IMG/VR virus record: IMGVR_UViG_2671181136_000012
Origin: a virus
Taxonomy: Duplodnaviria; Heunggongvirae; Uroviricota; Caudoviricetes
Direction: 5' to 3' (one strand)
Length of the DNA: 11,511 nt
Shown: positions 887-10,737 of the stretch, piece after piece
Numbering within the stretch: the first letter of the stretch is position 1
Layout of the letters: every line of letters begins with the position of its first letter
The notes under the pieces: model-generated
What the model was told of the DNA's origin: nothing
Databases searched by the model: none
Seen by the model: only the letters and a program-made list of their open reading frames with translations
Position numbers and translations under genes: made by a program

Positions 887-1243
887 GTGTTGATTGAGTG
901 TTTGTTATACGGTCTAATGGTTTTTTCAGCATTAAATATTTATCATTCATATGGTGTGGGTAGAGTGAATATTGATGAGGCGTCGGGGTGTTTCATCCTT
1001 AGGCAGCGTATTGATATAGTCAATGCAGAACGAGCAAAGGCCTTCAGCCGTTTGACAGTTTTGTTCTGTACTCCTGATCGTCTTTCGGGAAGAGACGTTA
1101 TTATTCTGAATAGTGATGCTATACAGAGGGTTTGCGATGAGTTCATGGTGGCTAATTCAGAATTATTTGCTCTTGTTCAGGAGTACAACAGAATAGCCAG
1201 GACCTGTGGTATGGATGAACTTCGGATTACTCATCTGGGGTAG
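887..1243 (+). CDS. Hypothetical protein (118 aa from GTG 887; alternative start ATG 917)
   Basis: Six-frame ORF in an AT-rich segment directly after the tRNAs. There is no convincing Shine-Dalgarno sequence and no motif I recognise. Confidence 0.35.
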   Translation: MLIECLLYGLMVFSALNIYHSYGVGRVNIDEASGCFILRQRIDIVNAERAKAFSRLTVLFCTPDRLSGRDVIILNSDAIQRVCDEFMVANSELFALVQEYNRIARTCGMDELRITHLG

Positions 1244-1690: not shown

Positions 1691-2026
1691 TTATGGACTT
1701 TGTTGTTTTAGCCCATAAGGACATATTTGCAGAGTGCAACGGTTATTAAAGCATTCATTCAATACGTTATCTGTATTTGTAGGGCATTCCTGGCTGTTTT
1801 TGATTAAATTCCAGAATGTTTTATTGAATGGTACTACGTTGTAAATGGTTACAGGCAGCACTTTGTTATTGAGCATGATGCCTGTGTGAGTCAGTGTAAA
1901 TATACTTTCAGGAGGTAAGAAAGCATCCGATTGATACCAGATTATTAATTTTATTTTACTCCATATGACTGAAAAAGATATTCCGCATGATGGCTGGATA
2001 ACTGTATCAATCACAATCCACTTCAT
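1691..2026 (-). CDS. Hypothetical Cys-containing small protein (111 aa), AT-rich moron
   Basis: ORF on the minus strand with a good RBS (AAGGA, 6 nt before ATG at 2026). The gene is markedly AT-rich compared with its neighbours and is followed by a very AT-rich upstream region (2027-2270). Product has several Cys in the C-terminal half; no family recognised. Confidence 0.5.
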
Positions 2027-2286
2027 TTAGTTTCCTTGTTTATGCCTTGCTGGTGATGTTCTGAAAAGTATAAATGATATTTTTGATTGTAAACCATAGA
2101 GCAGAATTATTTTTCTGATGTTGTTTATTGTTTATTTAAATGCAGGGTGGTTTATATCTCGTCTTGTAGTTTATCCATGCATATCTGCTTGATGATGAGG
2201 TTTTTAATTAAGGTATGGTTTTGTGTTTTTTCTGTATTACATGTCAGGTATTTTAAAGAATCATTTTTCAGATGGTGGAAAGAACC

Positions 2287-4140
2287 ATGGCATTTAAACA
2301 CTATGATGTTGTCAGGGCGGCGTCGCCGTCAGATCTTGCGGAAAAGCTGACACATAAACTGAAAGAGGGCTGGCAGCCGTTTGGTAGTCCGGTGGCCATA
2401 ACCCCTTATACCCTGATGCAGGCGATTGCAGCAGAAGGTGATGTGGTCGTCAGTGGTGCAACTGAGCCGGAGTGGTACTACGTCATCGTACTGGCCGGGC
2501 AATCCAATGCCATGGCTTACGGTGAAGGGCTTCCGCTTCCGGATTCATACGATGCGCCCCATCCGCGCATTAAGCAACTGGCCCGTCGTAACACAGTGAC
2601 TCCCGGTGGTGAAGTATGCGTATTTAACGACATCATTCCTGCTGACCATTGTCTGCATGATGTTCAGGATATGAGTACGATTAACCATCCCCGGGCTGAC
2701 CTGAGCAAAGGGCAGTACGGCTGTGTCGGACAGGGCTTACATATTGCCAAAAAACTGCTTCCGTATATCCCTAATAATGCGGGGATCCTGCTGGTACCAT
2801 GCTGTCGTGGTGGTTCGGCATTCACCCAGGGCACGGAGGGGACATTCAGCGAGTCCACGGGGGCCAGTCAGGATTCGGCTCGCTGGGGAGTGGGTAAGCC
2901 GTTATATCAGGATCTGCTTTTCCGCACGAAGGCAGCATTGCAGAAAAACCCGAAAAACGTTTTGCTGGCGATATGCTGGATGCAGGGGGAATTCGATATG
3001 ACGAATGCCAGTTACGCCCAGCAGCCAGCAGCATTTCTTGCAATGGTACAGCAGTTCCGTGCTGACCTTGCCGGGCTGGCGGCGCAGTGTCACGGTGGAA
3101 GTCCGGCATCAGTCCCCTGGATTTGTGGCGACACGACATACGCGTGGAAACAAGAACACGGTACGCAATATGAAGTGGTATATGGTGCATATAAAGGTAA
3201 AGAATCCCAGCAGATTTATTTTGTTCCCTTTATGACCGATGGTAGCGGAGTTAATACACCGACAAACAACCCGTCAGAAGATCCTGATATTGCCGGGTCT
3301 GGTTATTACGGTTCGGCATCCCGAACGAACAAAAACTGGGTATCATCAAATCGCCCGACGCATTTCAGCTCATGGGCGCGTCGTGGCATTATTCCCGATC
3401 GTATGGCAACTGCTATTCTGAACGTAGCCGGTCGCACCTTAGCCTTCATTAGTGGTAAGGCACCGGAAATCAAACCCTCGCCCGGCGGCGACACGCCATC
3501 GGGGCCGTCTGAAGATGCATCCGTACGCACAATCTCCCTGTTGCCGACAGCCGGAGATGCTGCTGCGCAGGGCTGGAGCATTAAGAATGGCGGAATTCAG
3601 TTGTCAGATGGTGTATTTAAGATCACCAAGCAGAGCAATAAAGCCTGGTCCCTGACGCGCCCGGTGGATGACGCAGTCTCCCTGCTGACACGGGGTGGCA
3701 GACTGAGCTGTAAGTTTCGACTGTCAGGCGCACTGACCAACAATCAGTTCGGTCTGGGAATTTATCTGTATACCGATGTAGCGTTACCTGACGTCGTGGC
3801 GATGACCGGGACTGGTAACCCGTTCCTGATGTCGTTCTTCACCCAGACCACAGACGGCAAACTGAATCTGATGCATCACAGGAAAGCAGGAAACACAAAG
3901 TTGGGCGAGTTCGGGAATTACAGTAACGACTGGCAGACGCTGGAGCTGGTGTTCACCGCCGGCAGTGCCACGGTTACTCCGAAACTGAATGGAGTGGCTG
4001 GCCCGGCATTCCAGGTCATAAAAGACAGTCTGACACTGGGGCTGAATGCGCTGACGCTGACGGATATTACCAAAAATGCAACGTATGGCGTTGAGATAGA
4101 AAGTCTGGTGCTGGAGATAAATGCACCGGCATCATCATAA
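2287..4140 (+). CDS. nanS-p: Prophage sialate O-acetylesterase NanS-p-like (DUF1737 N-terminal region + SASA/SGNH esterase + C-terminal lectin-like domain)
   Basis: The N-terminus MAFKHYDVVRAASPSDL is DUF1737-like and is followed by the GQSNA esterase motif typical of SASA-family 9-O-acetylneuraminate esterases. Gene position (after the tRNA/stx locus, before the holin) is as in Stx and related lambdoid phages. Start taken at ATG 2287 (GGTGGAAAG upstream); the track ORF begins at ATG 2272 without an RBS. Confidence 0.8.
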   Translation: MAFKHYDVVRAASPSDLAEKLTHKLKEGWQPFGSPVAITPYTLMQAIAAEGDVVVSGATEPEWYYVIVLAGQSNAMAYGEGLPLPDSYDAPHPRIKQLARRNTVTPGGEVCVFNDIIPADHCLHDVQDMSTINHPRADLSKGQYGCVGQGLHIAKKLLPYIPNNAGILLVPCCRGGSAFTQGTEGTFSESTGASQDSARWGVGKPLYQDLLFRTKAALQKNPKNVLLAICWMQGEFDMTNASYAQQPAAFLAMVQQFRADLAGLAAQCHGGSPASVPWICGDTTYAWKQEHGTQYEVVYGAYKGKESQQIYFVPFMTDGSGVNTPTNNPSEDPDIAGSGYYGSASRTNKNWVSSNRPTHFSSWARRGIIPDRMATAILNVAGRTLAFISGKAPEIKPSPGGDTPSGPSEDASVRTISLLPTAGDAAAQGWSIKNGGIQLSDGVFKITKQSNKAWSLTRPVDDAVSLLTRGGRLSCKFRLSGALTNNQFGLGIYLYTDVALPDVVAMTGTGNPFLMSFFTQTTDGKLNLMHHRKAGNTKLGEFGNYSNDWQTLELVFTAGSATVTPKLNGVAGPAFQVIKDSLTLGLNALTLTDITKNATYGVEIESLVLEINAPASS

Positions 4141-4225
4141 AAAGTGAGCCAGTCAAATGGAAGGTATCGTTAAACTCACCGGTAGTGTCAGTGGGTCGTC
4201 TGAGATGCCTGCATGAGTTATCAGA

Positions 4226-4256
4226 GCCATCAGTACTTAACTGGTGGCTTTTTTTA
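4226..4256 (+). terminator. Rho-independent terminator-like hairpin upstream of the holin
   Basis: Stem GCCATCAG / CTGGTGGC (one G-U pair), 7-nt loop, then TTTTTTTATT. Confidence 0.45.
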
Positions 4257-4290
4257 TTGTTGTCAGCTTCCGGATAACGGGAGACGGGGT

Positions 4291-4506
4291 ATGTACCAGA
4301 TGGAAAAAATCACAACAGGTGTGTCATACACCACGTCAGCGGTGGGAACGGGCTACTGGTTCCTGCAGTTGCTGGACAGGGTTTCCCCGTCTCAGTGGGC
4401 GGCAATAGGCGTGCTGGGGAGTCTGCTGTTTGGGCTGCTGACATATCTGACTAACCTGTATTTCAAAATCAGAGAGGACCGTCGTAAGGCTGCACGGGGA
4501 GAGTAA
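4291..4506 (+). CDS. S: Phage holin, S21-like pinholin (class II, two TMDs) with dual-start motif
   Basis: 71 aa [71 protein letters not shown], closely resembling the phage 21 / Stx-phage holin. Two in-frame Met codons at 4291 and 4300 give the antiholin/holin dual start. RBS GGGAG at 4278-4282. The track ORF from 4213 overlaps the terminator hairpin and is probably not the real start. Confidence 0.85.
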
Positions 4507-4510
4507 TTCA

Positions 4511-5317
4511 ATGACTCAAAACTATGAACTGATTGTGAAAGGGATCCGCAATTTTGAGAATAAAGTTACGGTAACTTTAGCGTTACGGGACAAAAAACGC
4601 TTTGACGGTGAAATTTTTGACCTGGACATCTCGCTGGACCGTGTTGAAGGTGCCGCGCTGGAGGTTTATGAGGCAGCAGCCAGAAGGAGCATCAGACAGG
4701 TCTTCCTGGATGTTGCTGCCGGGTTATGTGAAGGGGATGAGCTGTCGCCGGAAAAGCGCCCCATAATTTTAGAGGCGCAGGATGTGTTGATAACCTACAA
4801 AGGAAAGCTACCGGGAAGAATTACTGGTTCTCTGAAGATGCCGCCGTCAACACTGCGGTCAGAAAAAGAGGCGTCTTGTCTGCAGTCTGAGTACTCCATT
4901 ACGGTTAAAAGTGCCGGAGAGGAAGGAAATAAACGTTATTTTATTGCGTCTGCACCTGATAAAGATCAGGAATGGGAGTGTAACCGGCCATCCTTTGTTG
5001 TATACGGAGATGGCGGGAAAATAACCATCTCAGAAAATGGGAAATTAACACCGCCATCGCACCAGCATAGTGAGGCGCTCATTGAATTTGCCATTGATTA
5101 CCTGAAGAACAATAAAAAGCAGGGGCTGATGAAGCGCATTGGTCGTTGCATGGGATATCTGCAGGTAGCAGCTGAGATTGAAATGATGGCCAGTGGTGCT
5201 GACAATGATGCAGTTGTGCTGGAGGCTCTTCTGCGTGATTTTGATAATACGCCCTTTAAGAAAGCACCTGTTGACTGGATGCAGCCGGGGATGACTTATC
5301 TGAAAGGGCGTATATAA
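4511..5317 (+). CDS. Hypothetical protein, 268 aa, inserted between holin and endolysin
   Basis: Clean 807-nt ORF with RBS GGGGAGAG (4493-4500) and a start 4 nt after the holin stop, so it is translationally placed in the late operon. Predicted soluble; no motif I recognise. Confidence 0.6.
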   Translation: MTQNYELIVKGIRNFENKVTVTLALRDKKRFDGEIFDLDISLDRVEGAALEVYEAAARRSIRQVFLDVAAGLCEGDELSPEKRPIILEAQDVLITYKGKLPGRITGSLKMPPSTLRSEKEASCLQSEYSITVKSAGEEGNKRYFIASAPDKDQEWECNRPSFVVYGDGGKITISENGKLTPPSHQHSEALIEFAIDYLKNNKKQGLMKRIGRCMGYLQVAAEIEMMASGADNDAVVLEALLRDFDNTPFKKAPVDWMQPGMTYLKGRI

Positions 5318-5326
5318 GGTGGCTCG

Positions 5327-5641
5327 TTATCTGTTGCTGGATAATCGACTGAAGATGCGTTCTTTTTGTGTTTTTGCGTAATGATTGTCCCACTCACAAT
5401 CAAGGTAGCTTAATTCTTCATTCAACCAGTTATTTATATTGGTCTTAATACGCATAAGCATGGGCTGTGTTAATGCTCTGGCGATAATGCCGAGAGTCAC
5501 AGGTGTGAGATGTCCATACGGCTCAGCCTGAATGGATTTTACTGCATCGTGTTCTTGTGGGAGGAGTAAGAGGCACTCTGATTTTACCCGCTCATTTATG
5601 GCTTGCAGGCATAAATCATAATTATGTTGATCGTTATGCAT
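5327..5641 (-). CDS. Hypothetical protein, 104 aa, convergent with the 268-aa gene
   Basis: Minus-strand ORF with a good RBS (AGGA, 6 nt before ATG at 5641). Its stop lies 9 bp from the stop of the 268-aa gene. AT-richer than the flanking lysis genes. Confidence 0.55.
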   Translation of the reverse strand: MHNDQHNYDLCLQAINERVKSECLLLLPQEHDAVKSIQAEPYGHLTPVTLGIIARALTQPMLMRIKTNINNWLNEELSYLDCEWDNHYAKTQKERIFSRLSSNR

Positions 5642-5769
5642 GGTTAATCCTCTACTGAAATTGTCAGATATATTTCAGCCATCAGGAAAAACGCCAGTGT
5701 CCTACCGCTGGCGGGCTGAAGATTTAACATATCCAGGGATTCGGAACCGATAAATCCTGATAAATATCC

Positions 5770-6303
5770 ATGAACACCAAAATCAAATATGGCCTGTCGG
5801 CTGCCGTTCTGGCGTTGATTGCCATCGGTGCGCCTGCGCCTGATATTCTCGACCAGTTTCTGGATGAAAAAGAAGGTAACCACACAACGGCATACCGTGA
5901 TGGTGCGGGTATCTGGACCATCTGCCGCGGTGCCACAATGGTGGATGGTAAACCTGTTATTCCGGGCATGAAACTGTCGAAGGAAAAATGCGACCAGGTT
6001 AATGCCATTGAACGGGATAAGGCGCTGGCATGGGTGGAGCGCAATATTAAAGTTCCACTGACCGAACCACAGAAAGCGGGTATAGCGTCATTCTGTCCCT
6101 ATAACATTGGCCCCGGTAAGTGTTTCCCGTCGACGTTTTATAAGCGGCTGAATGCTGGTGACCGCAGGGGAGCGTGTGAGGCGATTCGCTGGTGGATTAA
6201 GGACGGTGGCAGAGACTGCCGTATTCGTTCAAACAACTGCTACGGTCAGGTATCCCGTCGTGACCAGGAGAGCGCGCTGGCGTGCTGGGGTATCGACAGA
6301 TAA
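5770..6303 (+). CDS. R: SAR endolysin (lysozyme R, glycoside hydrolase family 24, R21-like)
   Basis: N-terminal signal-anchor-release segment MNTKIKYGLSAAVLALIAIGAPA and catalytic E-x8-D-x5-T motif (EGNHTTAYRDGAGIWT). 177 aa, as in Stx-phage and phage 21 R. Confidence 0.85.
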   Translation: MNTKIKYGLSAAVLALIAIGAPAPDILDQFLDEKEGNHTTAYRDGAGIWTICRGATMVDGKPVIPGMKLSKEKCDQVNAIERDKALAWVERNIKVPLTEPQKAGIASFCPYNIGPGKCFPSTFYKRLNAGDRRGACEAIRWWIKDGGRDCRIRSNNCYGQVSRRDQESALACWGIDR

Positions 6304-6392
6304 GCAGAATATTTTGCTGAAAAATAAGGCATGGCCACGCGGGCGGATAACATGAAATCCTGCGAACTGGCGAAACGTAAGTGAATAAAAGT

Positions 6393-6430
6393 AAAAACCC
6401 CGTTTGTTGGCACCAAGCGGGGTTTTGTGT
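6393..6430. terminator. Strong rho-independent terminator-like hairpin, potentially bidirectional
   Basis: AAAAA, then stem CCCCGTTTG / CAAGCGGGG (9 bp, one G-U) with a 7-nt loop, then TTTTGTGTTT. The A-tract upstream and T-tract downstream allow function on either strand. Confidence 0.55.
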
Positions 6431-6601: not shown

Positions 6602-7069
6602 ATGAACCGCGTACTGTGCGTGGTCATCATTGCCCTGCTGGTGGCCTGTGGTGCGCTTAGTCTGGGGCTGAATCATTACCGTGATAACGCCATAACCTAC
6701 AAAGAGCAGCGCGATAAAAAAGTCAGTGAGCTGGAGCAGGCAAATGCAACCATTACTGATATGCAGCAGCGCCAGCGTGATGTTGCTGCACTTGATGCCA
6801 GATACTCGAGGGAATTAGCCGATGCGAGAGCTGAAAATGAAACTCTGCGCGCTGACGTTGCCGCTGGTCGTAAGCGCCTGCGGATCAACGCCACCTGCCC
6901 CGGTACCGTGCGTGAAGCCCCCACCACCTCCGGCGTGGATAATGCAACCGGCCCCCGACTGGCAGACACCGCTGAACGGGATTATTTCACTCTCAGAGAG
7001 CGGTTGATGCTGATGCAGAAGCAGCTGGAAGTGGCGCAGGAATATATCCGCACTCAGTGCCTGAAATAA
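6602..7069 (+). CDS. Rz: Spanin inner-membrane subunit Rz (i-spanin)
   Basis: 155 aa with an N-terminal TM segment and a coiled-coil periplasmic domain, near-identical in pattern to lambda Rz (NHYRDNAITYK...AAGRKRL...RDYFTLRERL). Confidence 0.9.
   Translation: MNRVLCVVIIALLVACGALSLGLNHYRDNAITYKEQRDKKVSELEQANATITDMQQRQRDVAALDARYSRELADARAENETLRADVAAGRKRLRINATCPGTVREAPTTSGVDNATGPRLADTAERDYFTLRERLMLMQKQLEVAQEYIRTQCLK
6822..7007 (+). CDS. Rz1: Spanin outer-membrane lipoprotein Rz1 (o-spanin), embedded in the +1 frame of Rz
   Basis: 61 aa MRELKMKLCALTLPLVVSAC... with a lipobox (VSAC) and the proline-rich CVKPPPPPAWIMQP motif as in lambda Rz1. RBS GAGGGA 8 nt upstream. Confidence 0.85.
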   Translation: MRELKMKLCALTLPLVVSACGSTPPAPVPCVKPPPPPAWIMQPAPDWQTPLNGIISLSESG

Positions 7070-8722: not shown

Positions 8723-10264
8723 GCGACTCGTCAGAACCGTATTGATATTTACTGAGAGCTCAGATCAACTTTCCAGGGCAACAGATCGCGTACCCGGTTT
8801 GCCGGCCAGTCCTGGATATGTTCAATGACGTAACGCAGCCACTTTTCTGGCTCCACATTGTTCAGACGGCATGTGCCGATCAGCGAGTACAACACCGCCG
8901 CATGTTCACCACCGCTGTCGGAACCCGCGAACATCCAGTTTTTCCGGCCTACGGCCACTCCCCGTAAGGCGTTCTCTGCGATGTTGTTGTCGATTTCCAC
9001 CCAGCCATTACTGCAGTACACGTTCAGTGCATCCCACTGTTTCAGCAGGTATGCGAACGCTTTTGCCGTATCTGAGTGACGCGACAGTGTTTTCATCTGT
9101 TGCTGTATCCAGTCATACAGTGACTGCATCAGTGGCGCGGCTCTGGCTTTTCTTGCCGCCAGACGCTGTTCTGCTGAACAGCCCCGGACCTCTGCCTCGA
9201 TGGCATACAGTTCACCGATACGCTGCAGGGCTTCCGTGGTGATGTAGGTGGGCGCTCTTGCATGCACATCGTGGATTTTTCTCCGGGCATGAGCCATACA
9301 CGCGGCTTCCGTTATTCTGCCGGATTCGTATAACGCCCGGTAACCACCGTAAGCATCGGCCTGAAGCACACCGCTGTAACCGGCCAGGTGATTTTGTGGA
9401 TGGATACCTTTCCGGTCCGGACTGTACGCGAACCAGACCGCCGGGGGCATCTGTGAACCGGCGTTACGGTCATCACGGACGTAGACCCACAGCCGGGCTG
9501 TCCGGGTTTTACCGCTGCCCGGCTCCTGGACCGGGACGGGGATATCATCAGCATGGACTTTACCGGGCATCAGCACATACTGGCGCAGGACGTCATACAG
9601 CGGCTCCAGCAGTTCAGCAACAGCACCTGTCCAGCGCCCCAGTGTGGCACGGCTCAGCTCCACTCCCTGACGACGGTATATTTCTGACTGGCGGTATAAC
9701 GGCAGATGGTCTGCATATTTCCCGGTGACAACATGGGCCAGAAGCCCCGCTCCGGCATAACTGCGTGCAATGGGTTTTGAAGGTACTGGTGCCTGCACGA
9801 TATGGTCGCACCGGCAACAGGCCTGTTTCGGACGTTGTGTTTCGATAACCTTAAAGGCGCTGCTGATAAGCTCCAGTTGCTCTGACACATCACATCCCAG
9901 AGAACTGAGTTCACCACCACAGGCAGGACAGCATTCCTCTTCCGGCCGGATAACCCGGGTTTCACGGGGAAGTGAGGCCGGTAACGGTTTACGGGCTGAA
10001 GACTGGCGCAGGGCGGATGGCAGTACCGGGTCATATTGCTCACCCAGCGTTTCCGCCATTTCTTCCTGAAGTGCGCTGATTCGCTCCTGTGCTTCCTGTA
10101 TCTGCCGTTCGGTTTTTGCACGAAGTTTTTCTGAGCTTTTACCGAACTGCATGCGCTGCAGTTTTGCAACCAGCGCCTTCAGCCGGTTGATTTCGGAAGC
10201 ATAAGCCGCCACCCGCTGTGAGAGCAGGCAGTTGTATTCAGCCATCTGGCGGATGGTGTCCTGT
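8719..10264 (-). mobile_element. Truncated IS66-family insertion sequence (one terminus plus the tnpC-type transposase gene only; orfA/orfB and the other inverted repeat are absent)
   Basis: The terminus at 8719 begins GTAAGCG, the characteristic IS66-family inverted-repeat start. The segment contains only the 498-aa transposase ORF with 30 bp and 19 bp flanks. At 10264/10265 the element abuts internal terminase sequence with no inverted repeat. Confidence 0.75.
8749..10245 (-). CDS. tnpC: IS66-family transposase (TnpC/orf3-type)
   Basis: 498 aa with an N-terminal coiled-coil/leucine-zipper region, Cys motifs CCPACGGEL ... CCRCDHIV (zinc finger typical of IS66 TnpC), and the conserved C-terminal region ...[47 protein letters not shown].... 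Confidence 0.85.
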
Positions 10265-10737
10265 AATGTGGTGAAGTCTGCCCGTGTCGGTTATTCCAAA
10301 ATGCTGCTGGGTGTTTATGCCTACTTCATAGAGCATAAGCAGCGCAACACCCTTATCTGGTTGCCGACGGATGGTGATGCCGAGAACTTTATGAAAACCC
10401 ACGTTGAGCCGACTATTCGTGATATTCCGTCGCTGCTGGCGCTGGCCCCGTGGTATGGCAAAAAGCACCGGGATAACACGCTCACCATGAAGCGTTTCAC
10501 CAATGGGCGTGGCTTCTGGTGCCTGGGCGGTAAAGCGGCAAAAAACTACCGTGAAAAGTCAGTGGATGTGGCGGGTTATGATGAACTTGCTGCCTTTGAT
10601 GAGGATATTGAACAGGAAGGCTCTCCAACGTTCCTGGGCGATAAGCGTATTGAAGGCTCGGTCTGGCCAAAGTCCATCCGTGGCTCCACGCCCAAAGTGA
10701 GAGGCACCTGTCAGATTGAGCGTGCAGCCAGTGAATC
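10265..10737 (+). repeat. Direct repeat copy 2 (473 bp, terminase A internal segment)
   Basis: Identical to 8246-8718. Beyond 10737 the sequence continues as uninterrupted terminase A (…ERAASESPHFMRFHVACPHCGEEQY…), whereas copy 1 is followed by the IS terminus. Confidence 0.9.

Follow-up and report, generated by a model that had tools for sequence, protein, structure and literature searches.

In phage 21 and lambda, the holin gene S and the endolysin gene R are adjacent. In the window (the whole stretch of 11,511 nucleotides analysed here), the gap between S and R in the P21-type lysis cassette of an Escherichia lambdoid prophage contains two genes: a forward gene for a 268-aa protein and a reverse gene for a 104-aa protein. 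The earlier note on this DNA regarded them as a convergent cassette inserted between the holin and endolysin genes, and as a candidate for an undescribed system. The question is thus whether the two genes form a system of their own or belong to the ordinary variation of a phage lysis region. On present evidence, the latter seems appropriate: what lies here is a mosaic accessory region of the ordinary kind rather than a demonstrated new system. Both genes are real, but as a two-gene system they are not demonstrated: the forward gene encodes a long variant of the widespread YdfR lysis-cassette protein, and the reverse gene is small and optional. The best reading, to which we assign a probability of roughly 0.55, is an accessory late YdfR protein accompanied by an optional moron.

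The genes surrounding the gap provide the basis for calling the cassette P21-type. S, labelled 'class II holin family protein' in RefSeq, begins at 4291; as read from the sequence, it opens with the dual-start motif M1-Y-Q-M4 (MYQM) and ends with a TAA at 4504–4506. The N-terminus of R carries a Gly/Ala-rich, weakly hydrophobic segment, also read from the sequence, which, together with knowledge of R21, makes R compatible with a SAR endolysin. Rz (Pfam Phage_lysis, E 8e-49) contains an embedded Rz1 ORF at 6822–7007. Thus, an S21-family holin with a dual start, a lysozyme with a putative SAR, and Rz/Rz1 are all found here. As for the gap itself, the layout described in the earlier note was confirmed: the ATG of the 268-aa gene lies 4 nt past the holin TAA, and the stop codons of the two convergent genes are 9 bp apart (5318–5326). 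The ribosome-binding site of the 104-aa gene is indeed strong (GAGGA with a 6-nt spacer), and this gene is, as claimed, richer in AT than the lysis genes: its GC content is 41.0%, as compared with 53.2% for each of S and R; the value for the 268-aa gene is 46.8–47.6%. The positions of the features are collected in Table 1.

Table 1. Features in and around the S–R gap of the window
Feature	Position	Strand	Remarks
S	4291..4506	+	71 aa; P21-type class II holin (pinholin); Pfam Phage_holin_2_1, E 2.3e-32
Shine-Dalgarno-like GGGGAGAG	4496-4503	+	within the 3' end of S; 7 nt before ATG 4511
Long mosaic ydfR-family gene	4511..5317	+	268 aa; ATG 4511, TAA 5315-5317; Pfam DUF1327
DUF1327 core domain, aa 1-74	4511..4732	+	three strands, then a helix predicted; AF2 pLDDT 63-76
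Linker and variable middle, aa 75-158	4733..4984	+	predicted disordered; pLDDT 22-38
C-terminal domain (C-domain), aa 159-268	4985..5317	+	no Pfam match; from sequence comparisons
Perfect inverted repeat, 11 bp	5247..5313	.	arms 5247-5257 and 5303-5313; 3' end of ydfR; RNAfold
104-aa gene (WP_000551290.1)	5327..5641	-	ATG 5641-5639, stop 5329-5327; from dN/dS, AF2 and homologues
GAGGA Shine-Dalgarno of the 104-aa gene	5648-5652	-	6-nt spacer; read from the sequence
Hairpin and T5	5687..5713	-	arms 5692-5699 and 5706-5713; T5 5691-5687; sequence, RNAfold
Conserved R leader	5714..5769	+	no evident Shine-Dalgarno; from alignment
R	5770..6303	+	phage lysozyme; Pfam Phage_lysozyme, E 2.8e-25

The earlier note recognised no domain in either protein. 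For the 268-aa protein this was wrong, because, as judged by its sequence, it is a clear member of the YdfR/DUF1327 family: aa 1–100 match Pfam DUF1327 (PF07041) with 136.7 bits (E 3.2e-40), the gathering cut-off being 25, and the counterpart in NC_008464 is annotated 'YdfR family protein'. The PHROGs matches (phrog_1085, phrog_2091 and phrog_406) are all annotated as of unknown function. Residues 1–74 share 80% identity with residues 1–74 of K-12 YdfR. In the middle segment, aa 75–158, other alleles carry a coiled-coil insert, as seen in the alignment. The C-domain, the last ~60 aa of which are highly conserved, is found elsewhere as the C-terminus of stand-alone proteins of 185–217 aa encoded directly 3' of S. 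The AF2 model of the whole protein is poor (pLDDT 50.5), and a sequence-profile search of the PDB with the YdfR protein gave no match.

For K-12 YdfR, a bacterial two-hybrid signal and co-purification with Rne 1–597/598 were reported in 2026, for which aa 1–72 suffice; Rne 1–597 is the catalytic N-terminal half of RNase E (PMC13232886). RNA was co-purified with YdfR, few transcripts were changed upon its overexpression, and the RNase E interaction was reported for the short K-12 protein only (PMC13232886). At 80% identity, the DUF1327 core in the window is homologous to the reported RNase E-binding part of K-12 YdfR. This paper was the relevant one found in the literature search on ydfR; the search on DUF1327 yielded only incidental mention, and the reviews of the Stx-phage lysis region do not discuss the S–R gap.

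In this cassette type, the gap is normally occupied by a ydfR-type gene, and the term 'inserted cassette' is therefore not appropriate. A DUF1327 gene lies between the class II holin and lysozyme genes in the window, in K-12 Qin (essQ-ydfR-rrrQ) and in Stx2 phage 86. In a survey of 77 viral contigs with the same endolysin type (R ≥ 94% identical), the S–R gap was filled in all 77, over 399–1316 bp and with at least 13 domain layouts; S and R were adjacent, with an empty gap, in none of them. Among the long forms, S–YdfR (296 aa)–R is the most frequent. Among 5426 complete E. coli genomes, the region was matched at least partially in 4138, the C-domain segment in 787, and the 104-aa gene in 95, including O104:H4; the 104-aa gene was also found in 11 of the 77 viral contigs. 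Copies of the genes in the O104:H4 lineage and in strain 55989 show 100% identity; for Stx2 phage 86 the figure is 94%. Exchange of parts is evident: the N-domain allele is swapped (99% versus 51–54% identity) beside an identical C-domain and 104-aa gene, and C-domain subtypes and 104-aa alleles occur in shuffled combinations. These sequence comparisons show that the S–R gap is a mosaic hot spot.

Both ORFs had been taken to be genuine, and this view is supported by the DUF1327 score of 136.7 bits for the 268-aa ORF and by the following data for the 104-aa ORF. The latter is intact, at constant length, in six distinct alleles up to a dS of 0.6, with dN/dS of 0.21–0.41 and a third-position bias across the alleles, and its GAGGA is largely conserved in the alignment of six loci. 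The AF2 model, built from 7 sequences only, is confident (pLDDT 88.8) and consists of five helices; the protein is predicted to be soluble and all-helical (pI 6.2, GRAVY −0.57). Judging from the sequences and the model, the 104-aa gene is genuine. Its family is restricted to Escherichia: 13 clusters at 71–99% identity were found, together with remote relatives at 28–54% identity that retain the length and the conserved motifs, and no relative was found in the GTDB representative genomes. The 104-aa protein matches phrog_1853, annotated as of unknown function, and has no match in Pfam, NCBIfam or PADLOC. Foldseek against BFVD found no fold relative (nothing at E ≤ 0.001), and no mention of WP_000551290.1 was found in the literature.

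The transcription signals bear on how the two genes may be expressed. A promoter for the 104-aa gene had been presumed in 5642–5769; no sigma-70 consensus occurs there on the minus strand, and the scan of the minus strand over 5642–5900 also found none, only weak extended −10-like matches being seen by eye. The scan found no canonical terminator 3' of the 104-aa gene. Thus, because neither promoter nor canonical terminator was found, its independent expression in a lysogen is only putative. Meanwhile, the antisense overlap that had been deduced from the convergent 3' ends is true and is even stronger than claimed: the scan found no plus-strand terminator within the S–R gap, so that R must be read through, and the late transcript crosses the whole 104-aa gene to reach R.

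The perfect inverted repeat lies ~15 nt 3' of the 104-aa stop on the minus strand and has no U-run on either strand. The hairpin at 5687..5713 precedes the start codon of the 104-aa gene by ~45 nt and resembles a terminator on the minus strand alone; it is kept in six loci carrying the 104-aa gene, and the hairpin at 5692–5713 without the T-run is common to cassettes with other reverse ORFs. The R leader is likewise common to cassettes with differing reverse ORFs, and is absent from K-12 Qin. A search of Rfam at E up to 1 over 4000–6400 found nothing.

The earlier note had also suggested that the locus might be a moron. In the Hendrix/Juhala sense of this term, two features of the 104-aa gene agree with the suggestion: it is present or absent at the same position (95 versus 787 genomes, 11 of 77 contigs, and a locus, L070, described below), in cassettes that are otherwise nearly identical, and its composition is unlike that of the flanking phage genes (41.0% versus 53.2% GC). 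Its opposite strand and its own ribosome-binding site point in the same direction. A moron would also have its own promoter and terminator for expression from the repressed prophage; here, a hairpin with T5 lies upstream and a hairpin without a U-run downstream, and neither a sigma-70 consensus site (minus strand, 5642–5900) nor a canonical terminator was found.

The data above show that the genes are real, to which families they belong, how they are distributed and that the gap is mosaic; the timing of expression and any molecular target we infer as follows. The Q-dependent late transcript would carry ydfR together with S, R and Rz, and the 268-aa protein is probably translated right after S, because of the 4-nt gap and its own ribosome-binding site. 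Since the N-domain of K-12 YdfR is reported to bind RNase E and to co-purify with RNA, the 268-aa protein may be a late-expressed accessory factor directed at RNase E or RNA. The C-domain would be an extra module that is added, removed or split off by recombination. The 104-aa protein would be a cytoplasmic helical moron product, its gene being an optional cargo on the opposite strand just upstream of R, a position taken in sister cassettes by at least five other unrelated reverse-strand ORFs (86, 90, 91, 95 and 210 aa), two of which have dN/dS of 0.30 and 0.39. Expression of this gene may not depend on late transcription and would most likely take place in the resting prophage; late transcription crossing the gene in antisense would then shut it off. 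By analogy with the anti-adapter IraM, the protein may act by binding a host or phage protein.

A different interpretation, unlikely in our judgement, is that the two genes are a functional pair in which the 104-aa protein binds and restrains, or otherwise regulates, the C-domain of the long YdfR. It might be a prophage antidote to a late effector, or a lysis-timing regulator with reciprocal antisense control. The positional relationship between the genes argues for this interpretation: in lysis cassettes, the 104-aa gene always adjoins a C-domain ORF, 9–11 bp from its stop codon (95/95 genomes and 11/11 viral contigs), and the same arrangement is found in loci L005–L019, including the 52%-identical homologue of L019. 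The adjacency persists despite the shuffling of the C-domain subtypes relative to the 104-aa alleles, and its constancy may stem from a link in function instead of common ancestry. The junction repeat, too, is longer in the loci with the 104-aa gene (stem of 6–14 bp, mostly 8–14 bp, in 27 loci) than in those without it (5–7 bp in 28 loci), the loci in this comparison not being independent.

Nevertheless, of the genomes that have the C-domain, about 88% lack the 104-aa gene, as do 23 of 34 viral contigs. In locus L070, the same 268-aa architecture is followed directly by R, with no reverse gene. Conversely, an integrative conjugative element carries 104-aa homologues at 31–38% identity in its cargo region, beside an unrelated membrane protein and without any YdfR. 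Thus, the two genes do not always travel as a pair (787 versus 95 genomes), and the obligate co-occurrence expected of a toxin–antitoxin or effector–immunity pair is not seen in these C-domain genomes and conjugative-element homologues. The comparison of the 104-aa alleles with the C-domain gave r = 0.47 with clear shuffling, and therefore does not support tight co-evolution. Homologous recombination in the highly conserved last ~60 aa of the C-domain could carry the neighbour along, with no functional link being needed. Finally, neither protein matches a toxin, antitoxin, immunity or defence family in Pfam, NCBIfam or PADLOC.

It is less probable still that the prophage expresses, in the form of the 104-aa gene either by itself or together with ydfR, a module for anti-phage defence, superinfection exclusion or abortive infection. 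Morons in prophage late regions often encode exclusion functions, and the position of the 104-aa gene resembles a cargo hot spot. With the 104-aa gene, the alternative reverse-strand ORFs make at least six ORFs, which are called unrelated on the basis of hhalign comparisons of the 104-aa family with the 95-, 90- and 86-aa ORFs (probability < 1% each) and a BLASTP comparison of the 95-aa ORF with the 90-aa ORF (no alignment); the 104-aa family as a remote homologue of the 95-, 90- and 86-aa ORFs was accordingly rejected. The 95-aa ORF has a weak partial match to the PADLOC candidate PDC-S51 (E 2.6e-5), and in the cargo of the conjugative element, ArdA and a type III restriction-modification system are encoded close to one distant 104-aa homologue. 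Against such a module, PADLOC-DB v2.0.0, searched at E up to 1, gave no family for either window protein; neither of them has an enzymatic or membrane domain, and the literature search revealed no link.

The alternating reverse ORFs also allow a broader proposal, which we likewise regard as doubtful: Escherichia prophages would use the spot just upstream of R in P21-type lysis cassettes as a dedicated hot spot for exchanging at least six unrelated small reverse genes, which the lysogen expresses and late transcription silences. In that case, the 104-aa protein would be a previously undescribed modulator directed at the host or a phage; it might, for example, serve in exclusion or anti-defence, or hold the RNase E-binding YdfR in check.

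A role of the 104-aa protein as a small DNA-binding regulator of the helix-turn-helix-like type is very improbable. The suggestion comes from a borderline match in the PDB profile search, where aa 17–99 of the family aligned with the N-terminal HTH domain of an RpiR-family regulator (3iwf_A); its E value of 0.054, however, does not reach significance, the candidate helices are separated by a loop (aa 40–46) that exceeds a classical turn in length, and, with a pI of 6.2, the protein lacks the basic patch typical of DNA binders. As for the possibility that the ORF is a chance open frame antisense to a non-coding spacer, with which the missing promoter and terminator consensus and domain match would agree, it is already contradicted by the constant length up to dS 0.6, the third-position bias, the dN/dS, the strong ribosome-binding site, the confident model from 7 sequences and the conserved motifs in the 28–54% homologues.

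We therefore return to the reading of an accessory late YdfR protein with an optional moron. The genes concerned sit in the lysis cassettes of prophages of important pathogens, the lineage of the O104:H4 outbreak among them, and it is the lysis cassette that controls the release of toxin in Stx phages. Should YdfR act on RNase E late in infection, its modular C-terminal extensions would provide a handle on the tuning of host RNA decay or lysis. The alternating reverse genes upstream of R would offer a compact place to search for new lysogenic-conversion or exclusion functions.

Among known systems, the closest counterpart is YdfR (b1555) of the Qin cryptic prophage of K-12, which occupies the same slot (class II holin gene, ydfR, lysozyme gene) and, like the window gene, belongs to the late lysis operon. 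In Qin, however, the genes are tightly packed, and the stop codon of the 103-aa YdfR overlaps the rrrQ start, whereas the 268-aa window protein has an additional linker and a C-domain of ~110 aa, and its gene is followed by a reverse-strand gene and a 128-bp spacer before R. T7 gp0.7, phiKZ Dip and T4 Srd are phage-encoded modulators of RNase E. They have no sequence relation to YdfR, and differ from it in that YdfR is reported to contact RNase E at its catalytic N-terminal half; should the K-12 result hold for the window protein as well, YdfR would be another phage protein contacting RNase E in lytic growth.

A gene annotated as the IraM anti-adapter is located in the same window, at 1691–2026 on the reverse strand. 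Lambda bor and IraM exemplify the late-region morons that lambdoid phages carry on the opposite strand, and both are expressed from the prophage and act on the host. The 104-aa gene resembles them in being small, opposite to the late operon, lower in GC and variably present, and by this analogy it would presumably also be expressed from the prophage and act on the host. It differs from them in that no promoter or terminator was found, in its soluble helical product, and in having no sequence or fold relation to either. Finally, the lysis genes proper correspond to the S-R-Rz/Rz1 cassettes of phage 21 and lambda, with Phage_holin_2_1, a SAR-like lysozyme and Rz with an embedded Rz1 as in the window; what sets the present cassette and all 77 relatives apart from them is the 0.4–1.3 kb of variable genes between S and R.

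The window is a lambdoid late region with a P21-type lysis cassette. The gene for the 268-aa protein begins 4 nt past the holin stop and is preceded by GGGGAGAG, while a 6-nt spacer separates GAGGA from the ATG of the opposite-strand 104-aa gene. Between the two stops lie 9 bp, and the GC content is 41.0% in the 104-aa gene, about 47% in the 268-aa gene and 53.2% in S and R. The coordinates and composition thus agree with the layout described in the earlier note (the ORFs, their spacings and the AT-richer small gene).

Features of the window and of the alternative reverse ORFs (L-numbers denote comparison loci)
Feature	Position	Coordinates (strand) or loci
DNA methylase gene, 3′ part only	first feature in the window	
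Two tRNA genes	after the DNA methylase gene	one at 527-602
Low-GC insert	between the tRNA genes and the NanS-p-like gene	780-2270
ORFs in the low-GC insert		887-1243 (+); 1691-2026 (-)
NanS-p-like esterase gene		2272-4140
Terminator-like hairpin	between the NanS-p-like gene and the holin start	4223-4251 (+)
P21-type holin gene S, 71-aa product	stop codon 4504-4506	4291-4506
Long ydfR, 268 aa	between S and R	4511-5317 (+)
Inverted repeat, arms	last 25 codons of ydfR	5247-5257; 5303-5313
104-aa gene	between ydfR and R	5641-5327 (-)
Shared hairpin	upstream of R	5692-5713
Phage lysozyme gene R		5770-6303
Rz		6602-7069
Rz1	embedded in Rz	6822-7007
Nu1	after Rz/Rz1	
Terminase large-subunit gene, split by an IS66-family transposase gene	after Nu1	
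Duplicated terminase segment		8246-8718; 10265-10737
1.5-kb transposase piece	between the duplicates	8749-10245 (-)
Reverse ORF, 95 aa	directly upstream of R	L011, 3902-4189 (-)
Reverse ORF, 90 aa	directly upstream of R	L002 and ten viral contigs
Reverse ORF, 86 aa	directly upstream of R	L003, L078
Reverse ORF, 91 aa	directly upstream of R	L089
Reverse ORF, 210 aa	directly upstream of R	L061 and L073 types (also L080, L081, L085, L103)

The earlier note recognised no domain in the 268-aa protein and regarded both genes as inserted between the holin and the endolysin. However, this protein belongs to the YdfR/DUF1327 family by both the HMM and the positional tests: it matches Pfam DUF1327 with 136.7 bits (E = 3e-40), it shares 80% identity with E. 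coli K-12 YdfR over residues 1–74, and its orthologue in the Stx2-converting phage 86, in a region 94% identical to that of the window, is the 'YdfR family protein' of RefSeq. The gene order in the K-12 Qin prophage is essQ-ydfR-rrrQ-rzpQ, and a match to the region, in full or in part and mostly to its 5′ end, occurs in 4138 of the 5426 complete E. coli genomes. Thus, cassettes of this type as a rule have a ydfR-type gene between holin and endolysin, and it is not an insertion peculiar to the window. Functional data on YdfR were found in the literature solely in Göpel et al. (RNA Biol 2026; PMC13232886): K-12 YdfR gave two-hybrid signals with RNase E 1–597, for which residues 1–72 were sufficient, and co-purified with FLAG-tagged Rne 1–598; DNase-resistant nucleic acid was present in the eluate, and few transcripts changed on YdfR overexpression. 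In the PGAP annotation, the long ydfR genes of three comparison loci (L024, L025 and L026) are pseudogenes ('incomplete; missing C-terminus'), with the C-domain part left unannotated. The window's ORF is intact and full-length products of 268–296 aa are common in the protein collection; on this basis, these calls are probably artefacts that stem from a short family model.

The long YdfR has a mosaic structure. The homologues range from 103 to 333 aa, and their parts are a DUF1327 core (the N-domain; at least two allele groups, with ~50% identity between groups), a conserved linker PEKRPIILEAQDVLITYKGKLPGRITGSLKMPPSTLRSEK, an optional coiled-coil insert and a C-terminal domain of ~110 aa (the C-domain). 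The last also forms the end of stand-alone 185–217-aa proteins encoded directly after S without a DUF1327 domain (L008, L009, L017, L038), and at L011–L013 the order is S, a C-domain protein and a separate 75-aa DUF1327 gene. Recombination at a fine scale is visible in the swapping of the N-domain: an identical linker, C-domain and 104-aa gene adjoin N-domains of 99% or 51–54% identity. AF2 models the 268-aa protein poorly (overall pLDDT 50.5), with three strands followed by a helix in the N-domain (63–76), a disordered middle and a C-domain at 62–79.

Do the two genes form a functional pair? The 104-aa gene was found in 95 of the 5426 complete E. coli genomes (among them strain 55989 and strains of the O104:H4 outbreak, with 100% identical copies) and in 11 of 77 IMG/VR contigs whose R is ≥94% identical to that of the window. 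It stands beside or after a C-domain in every one of these lysis cassettes, and to this extent the two do travel together. The converse does not hold: the C-domain segment occurs in 787 of the genomes and in 34 of the contigs, 23 of which lack the 104-aa gene. In the 77 contigs the S-R gap measures 399–1316 bp, shows at least 13 domain layouts and is empty in none. At L070, R directly follows the same 268-aa architecture, and S, a 296-aa YdfR and R make up the commonest long form (L024, L025). The C-domain subtypes are shuffled relative to the 104-aa alleles (overall r = 0.47); between L014 and L076, for example, the small proteins are 85% and the C-domains 61% identical. In 36 complete E. coli genomes, an integrative conjugative element carries relatives of the small protein (31–38% identity) within its cargo region, with no YdfR nearby. 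The adjacency in lysis cassettes could reflect function or, equally, descent from one insertion beside the conserved last ~60 codons of the C-domain; a functional pair is considered unlikely, and an obligate two-gene system failed its test. As to the conjugative-element cargo, it is flanked by an integrase-domain gene on one side and by a type B L31 gene and TraG on the other (L021–L023; L107 9831–10148); the relative there follows an unrelated membrane-protein gene, and ArdA and a type III restriction-modification system are close by.

The site just upstream of R is a cargo hot spot, at which other cassettes carry other reverse ORFs; no paper found in the literature treats the S-R gap as a site of variable cargo. 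Homology of the 95-, 90- and 86-aa ORFs to the 104-aa family was not detectable (hhalign probability <1%), and the 95- and 90-aa ORFs, the only pair compared among the alternatives, gave no BLASTP alignment. The dN/dS values were 0.30 and 0.39 in the two alternatives with enough variation to test. The ~75–80 bp just upstream of R, including the shared hairpin, are common to the cassettes with the 104-, 95- and 86-aa ORFs and absent from K-12 Qin; for the 90-aa cassette, only the ~50 bp nearest R are in common. The defence or exclusion module considered in the earlier note is improbable, since the pair fails the test for any catalogued defence system (PADLOC). None of the alternative reverse ORFs has a convincing Pfam or PADLOC assignment, and the match of the 95-aa ORF to the PADLOC candidate PDC-S51 is weak and partial (E = 2.6e-5; aa 2–60 against profile positions 99–161 of 376). 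The 210-aa ORF, without a Pfam or PADLOC match, overlaps the 3′ part of an annotated plus-strand ORF, whose tail there is probably a read-through artefact.

The 104-aa protein is soluble (GRAVY −0.57, pI 6.2), has no match in Pfam, NCBIfam or PADLOC, and falls in phrog_1853, a family without assigned function. AF2 predicts a five-helix bundle (pLDDT 88.8; input of only seven sequences). Through an exhaustive profile search and its follow-up, the family widened to relatives at 28–54% identity, which are of similar length and have motifs such as EP.G, LTP, W.NEE and QK.R.F in common; the named members are all from E. coli. The sole hint to identity is a non-significant similarity of its profile to an RpiR-type HTH domain (E = 0.054), and an HTH-like regulator is very improbable. 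The gene itself is real, and a spurious ORF can practically be dismissed: six distinct alleles, which diverge to a dS of up to 0.6, all keep an intact ORF of 103–104 codons, with third-position bias and dN/dS of 0.21–0.41.

The earlier note presumed a promoter belonging to the 104-aa gene. A sigma-70 consensus scan finds none on the minus strand between this gene and R, where only weak extended −10-like matches are seen by eye, and a terminator scan of the S-R gap was negative on both strands. Because no plus-strand terminator precedes R, the late transcript must cross the entire 104-aa gene in antisense. Thus, the proposed transcript overlap stands, but not its restriction to the 3′ ends. On the minus strand of the 104-aa variant, T5 comes after the shared hairpin, ~45 nt before the start codon. 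The perfect 11-bp inverted repeat lies ~15 nt past the 104-aa gene's stop on that strand, without a U-run; it could be the 3′-end hairpin of this gene's mRNA, or be due to chance or shared descent. Rfam gave no match. The stem of this inverted repeat is 6–14 bp (mostly 8–14) in 27 loci with the 104-aa gene and 5–7 bp in 28 loci without it, which is only a lead since the loci are related by descent. No Shine-Dalgarno sequence of R is recognisable in 5714–5769. In K-12 Qin (L004), the rrrQ start overlaps the ydfR stop (ATGA, 4555–4558), which suggests translational coupling of R; the cassettes with the 104-, 95- or 86-aa reverse gene have in its place the conserved ~75–80 bp leader with the hairpin.

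Several other observations concern the rest of the window. The terminator-like hairpin upstream of S (12-bp stem and T-run) falls within the spurious 5′ extension of the 97-aa ORF 4213–4506. A 473-bp segment of the terminase large-subunit gene is duplicated exactly and directly around the piece encoding the transposase (498 aa), a repeat far longer than a normal target-site duplication; the terminase gene is thereby broken, so a defective prophage or an odd assembly is probable. ARAGORN calls the tRNA gene in the table tRNA-Met (anticodon CAT), and RefSeq has tRNA-Ile for the first tRNA gene of the E. coli 55989 prophage, at a comparable position, the usual ambiguity for this anticodon when lysidine-modified. 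The low-GC insert (31–40% GC) occupies the same position as stx in Stx phages, and at least 80% of it is present in 863 genomes. Its ORFs have no match in Pfam or PADLOC; identical copies are named 'DUF3927 family protein' and, for the reverse-strand one (33–36% GC, beside the DUF3927 gene), 'anti-adapter protein IraM' in RefSeq.

Family membership, the reality of the genes, their distribution and the mosaicism are shown; for the mechanism, we favour, at a probability of about 0.55, a YdfR-type late accessory protein acting on RNase E/RNA combined with a moron. The 268-aa protein would be a Q-dependent late product whose N-domain, by transfer from K-12 YdfR, may contact RNase E and/or RNA, and which would bear an exchangeable C-terminal module. 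The 104-aa gene would be an optional moron, for which the IraM-annotated ORF provides a precedent in the window; its expression would not depend on the late operon, would probably take place in the lysogen and would be shut down on induction by convergent late transcription, and its product would work through protein binding. Both proteins are already in public databases ('YdfR family protein', 'hypothetical protein', PHROG families), and all close relatives belong to Escherichia (E. coli, E. albertii, E. ruysiae and one Escherichia sp. isolate). The interest is moderate to low unless experiments reveal a function. Compared with K-12 Qin, the window differs in carrying a reverse gene. Among the three marks of a moron, a promoter and terminator of its own were not seen for the 104-aa gene by the consensus scan, but the other two, presence/absence variation and deviant composition, are found in it.
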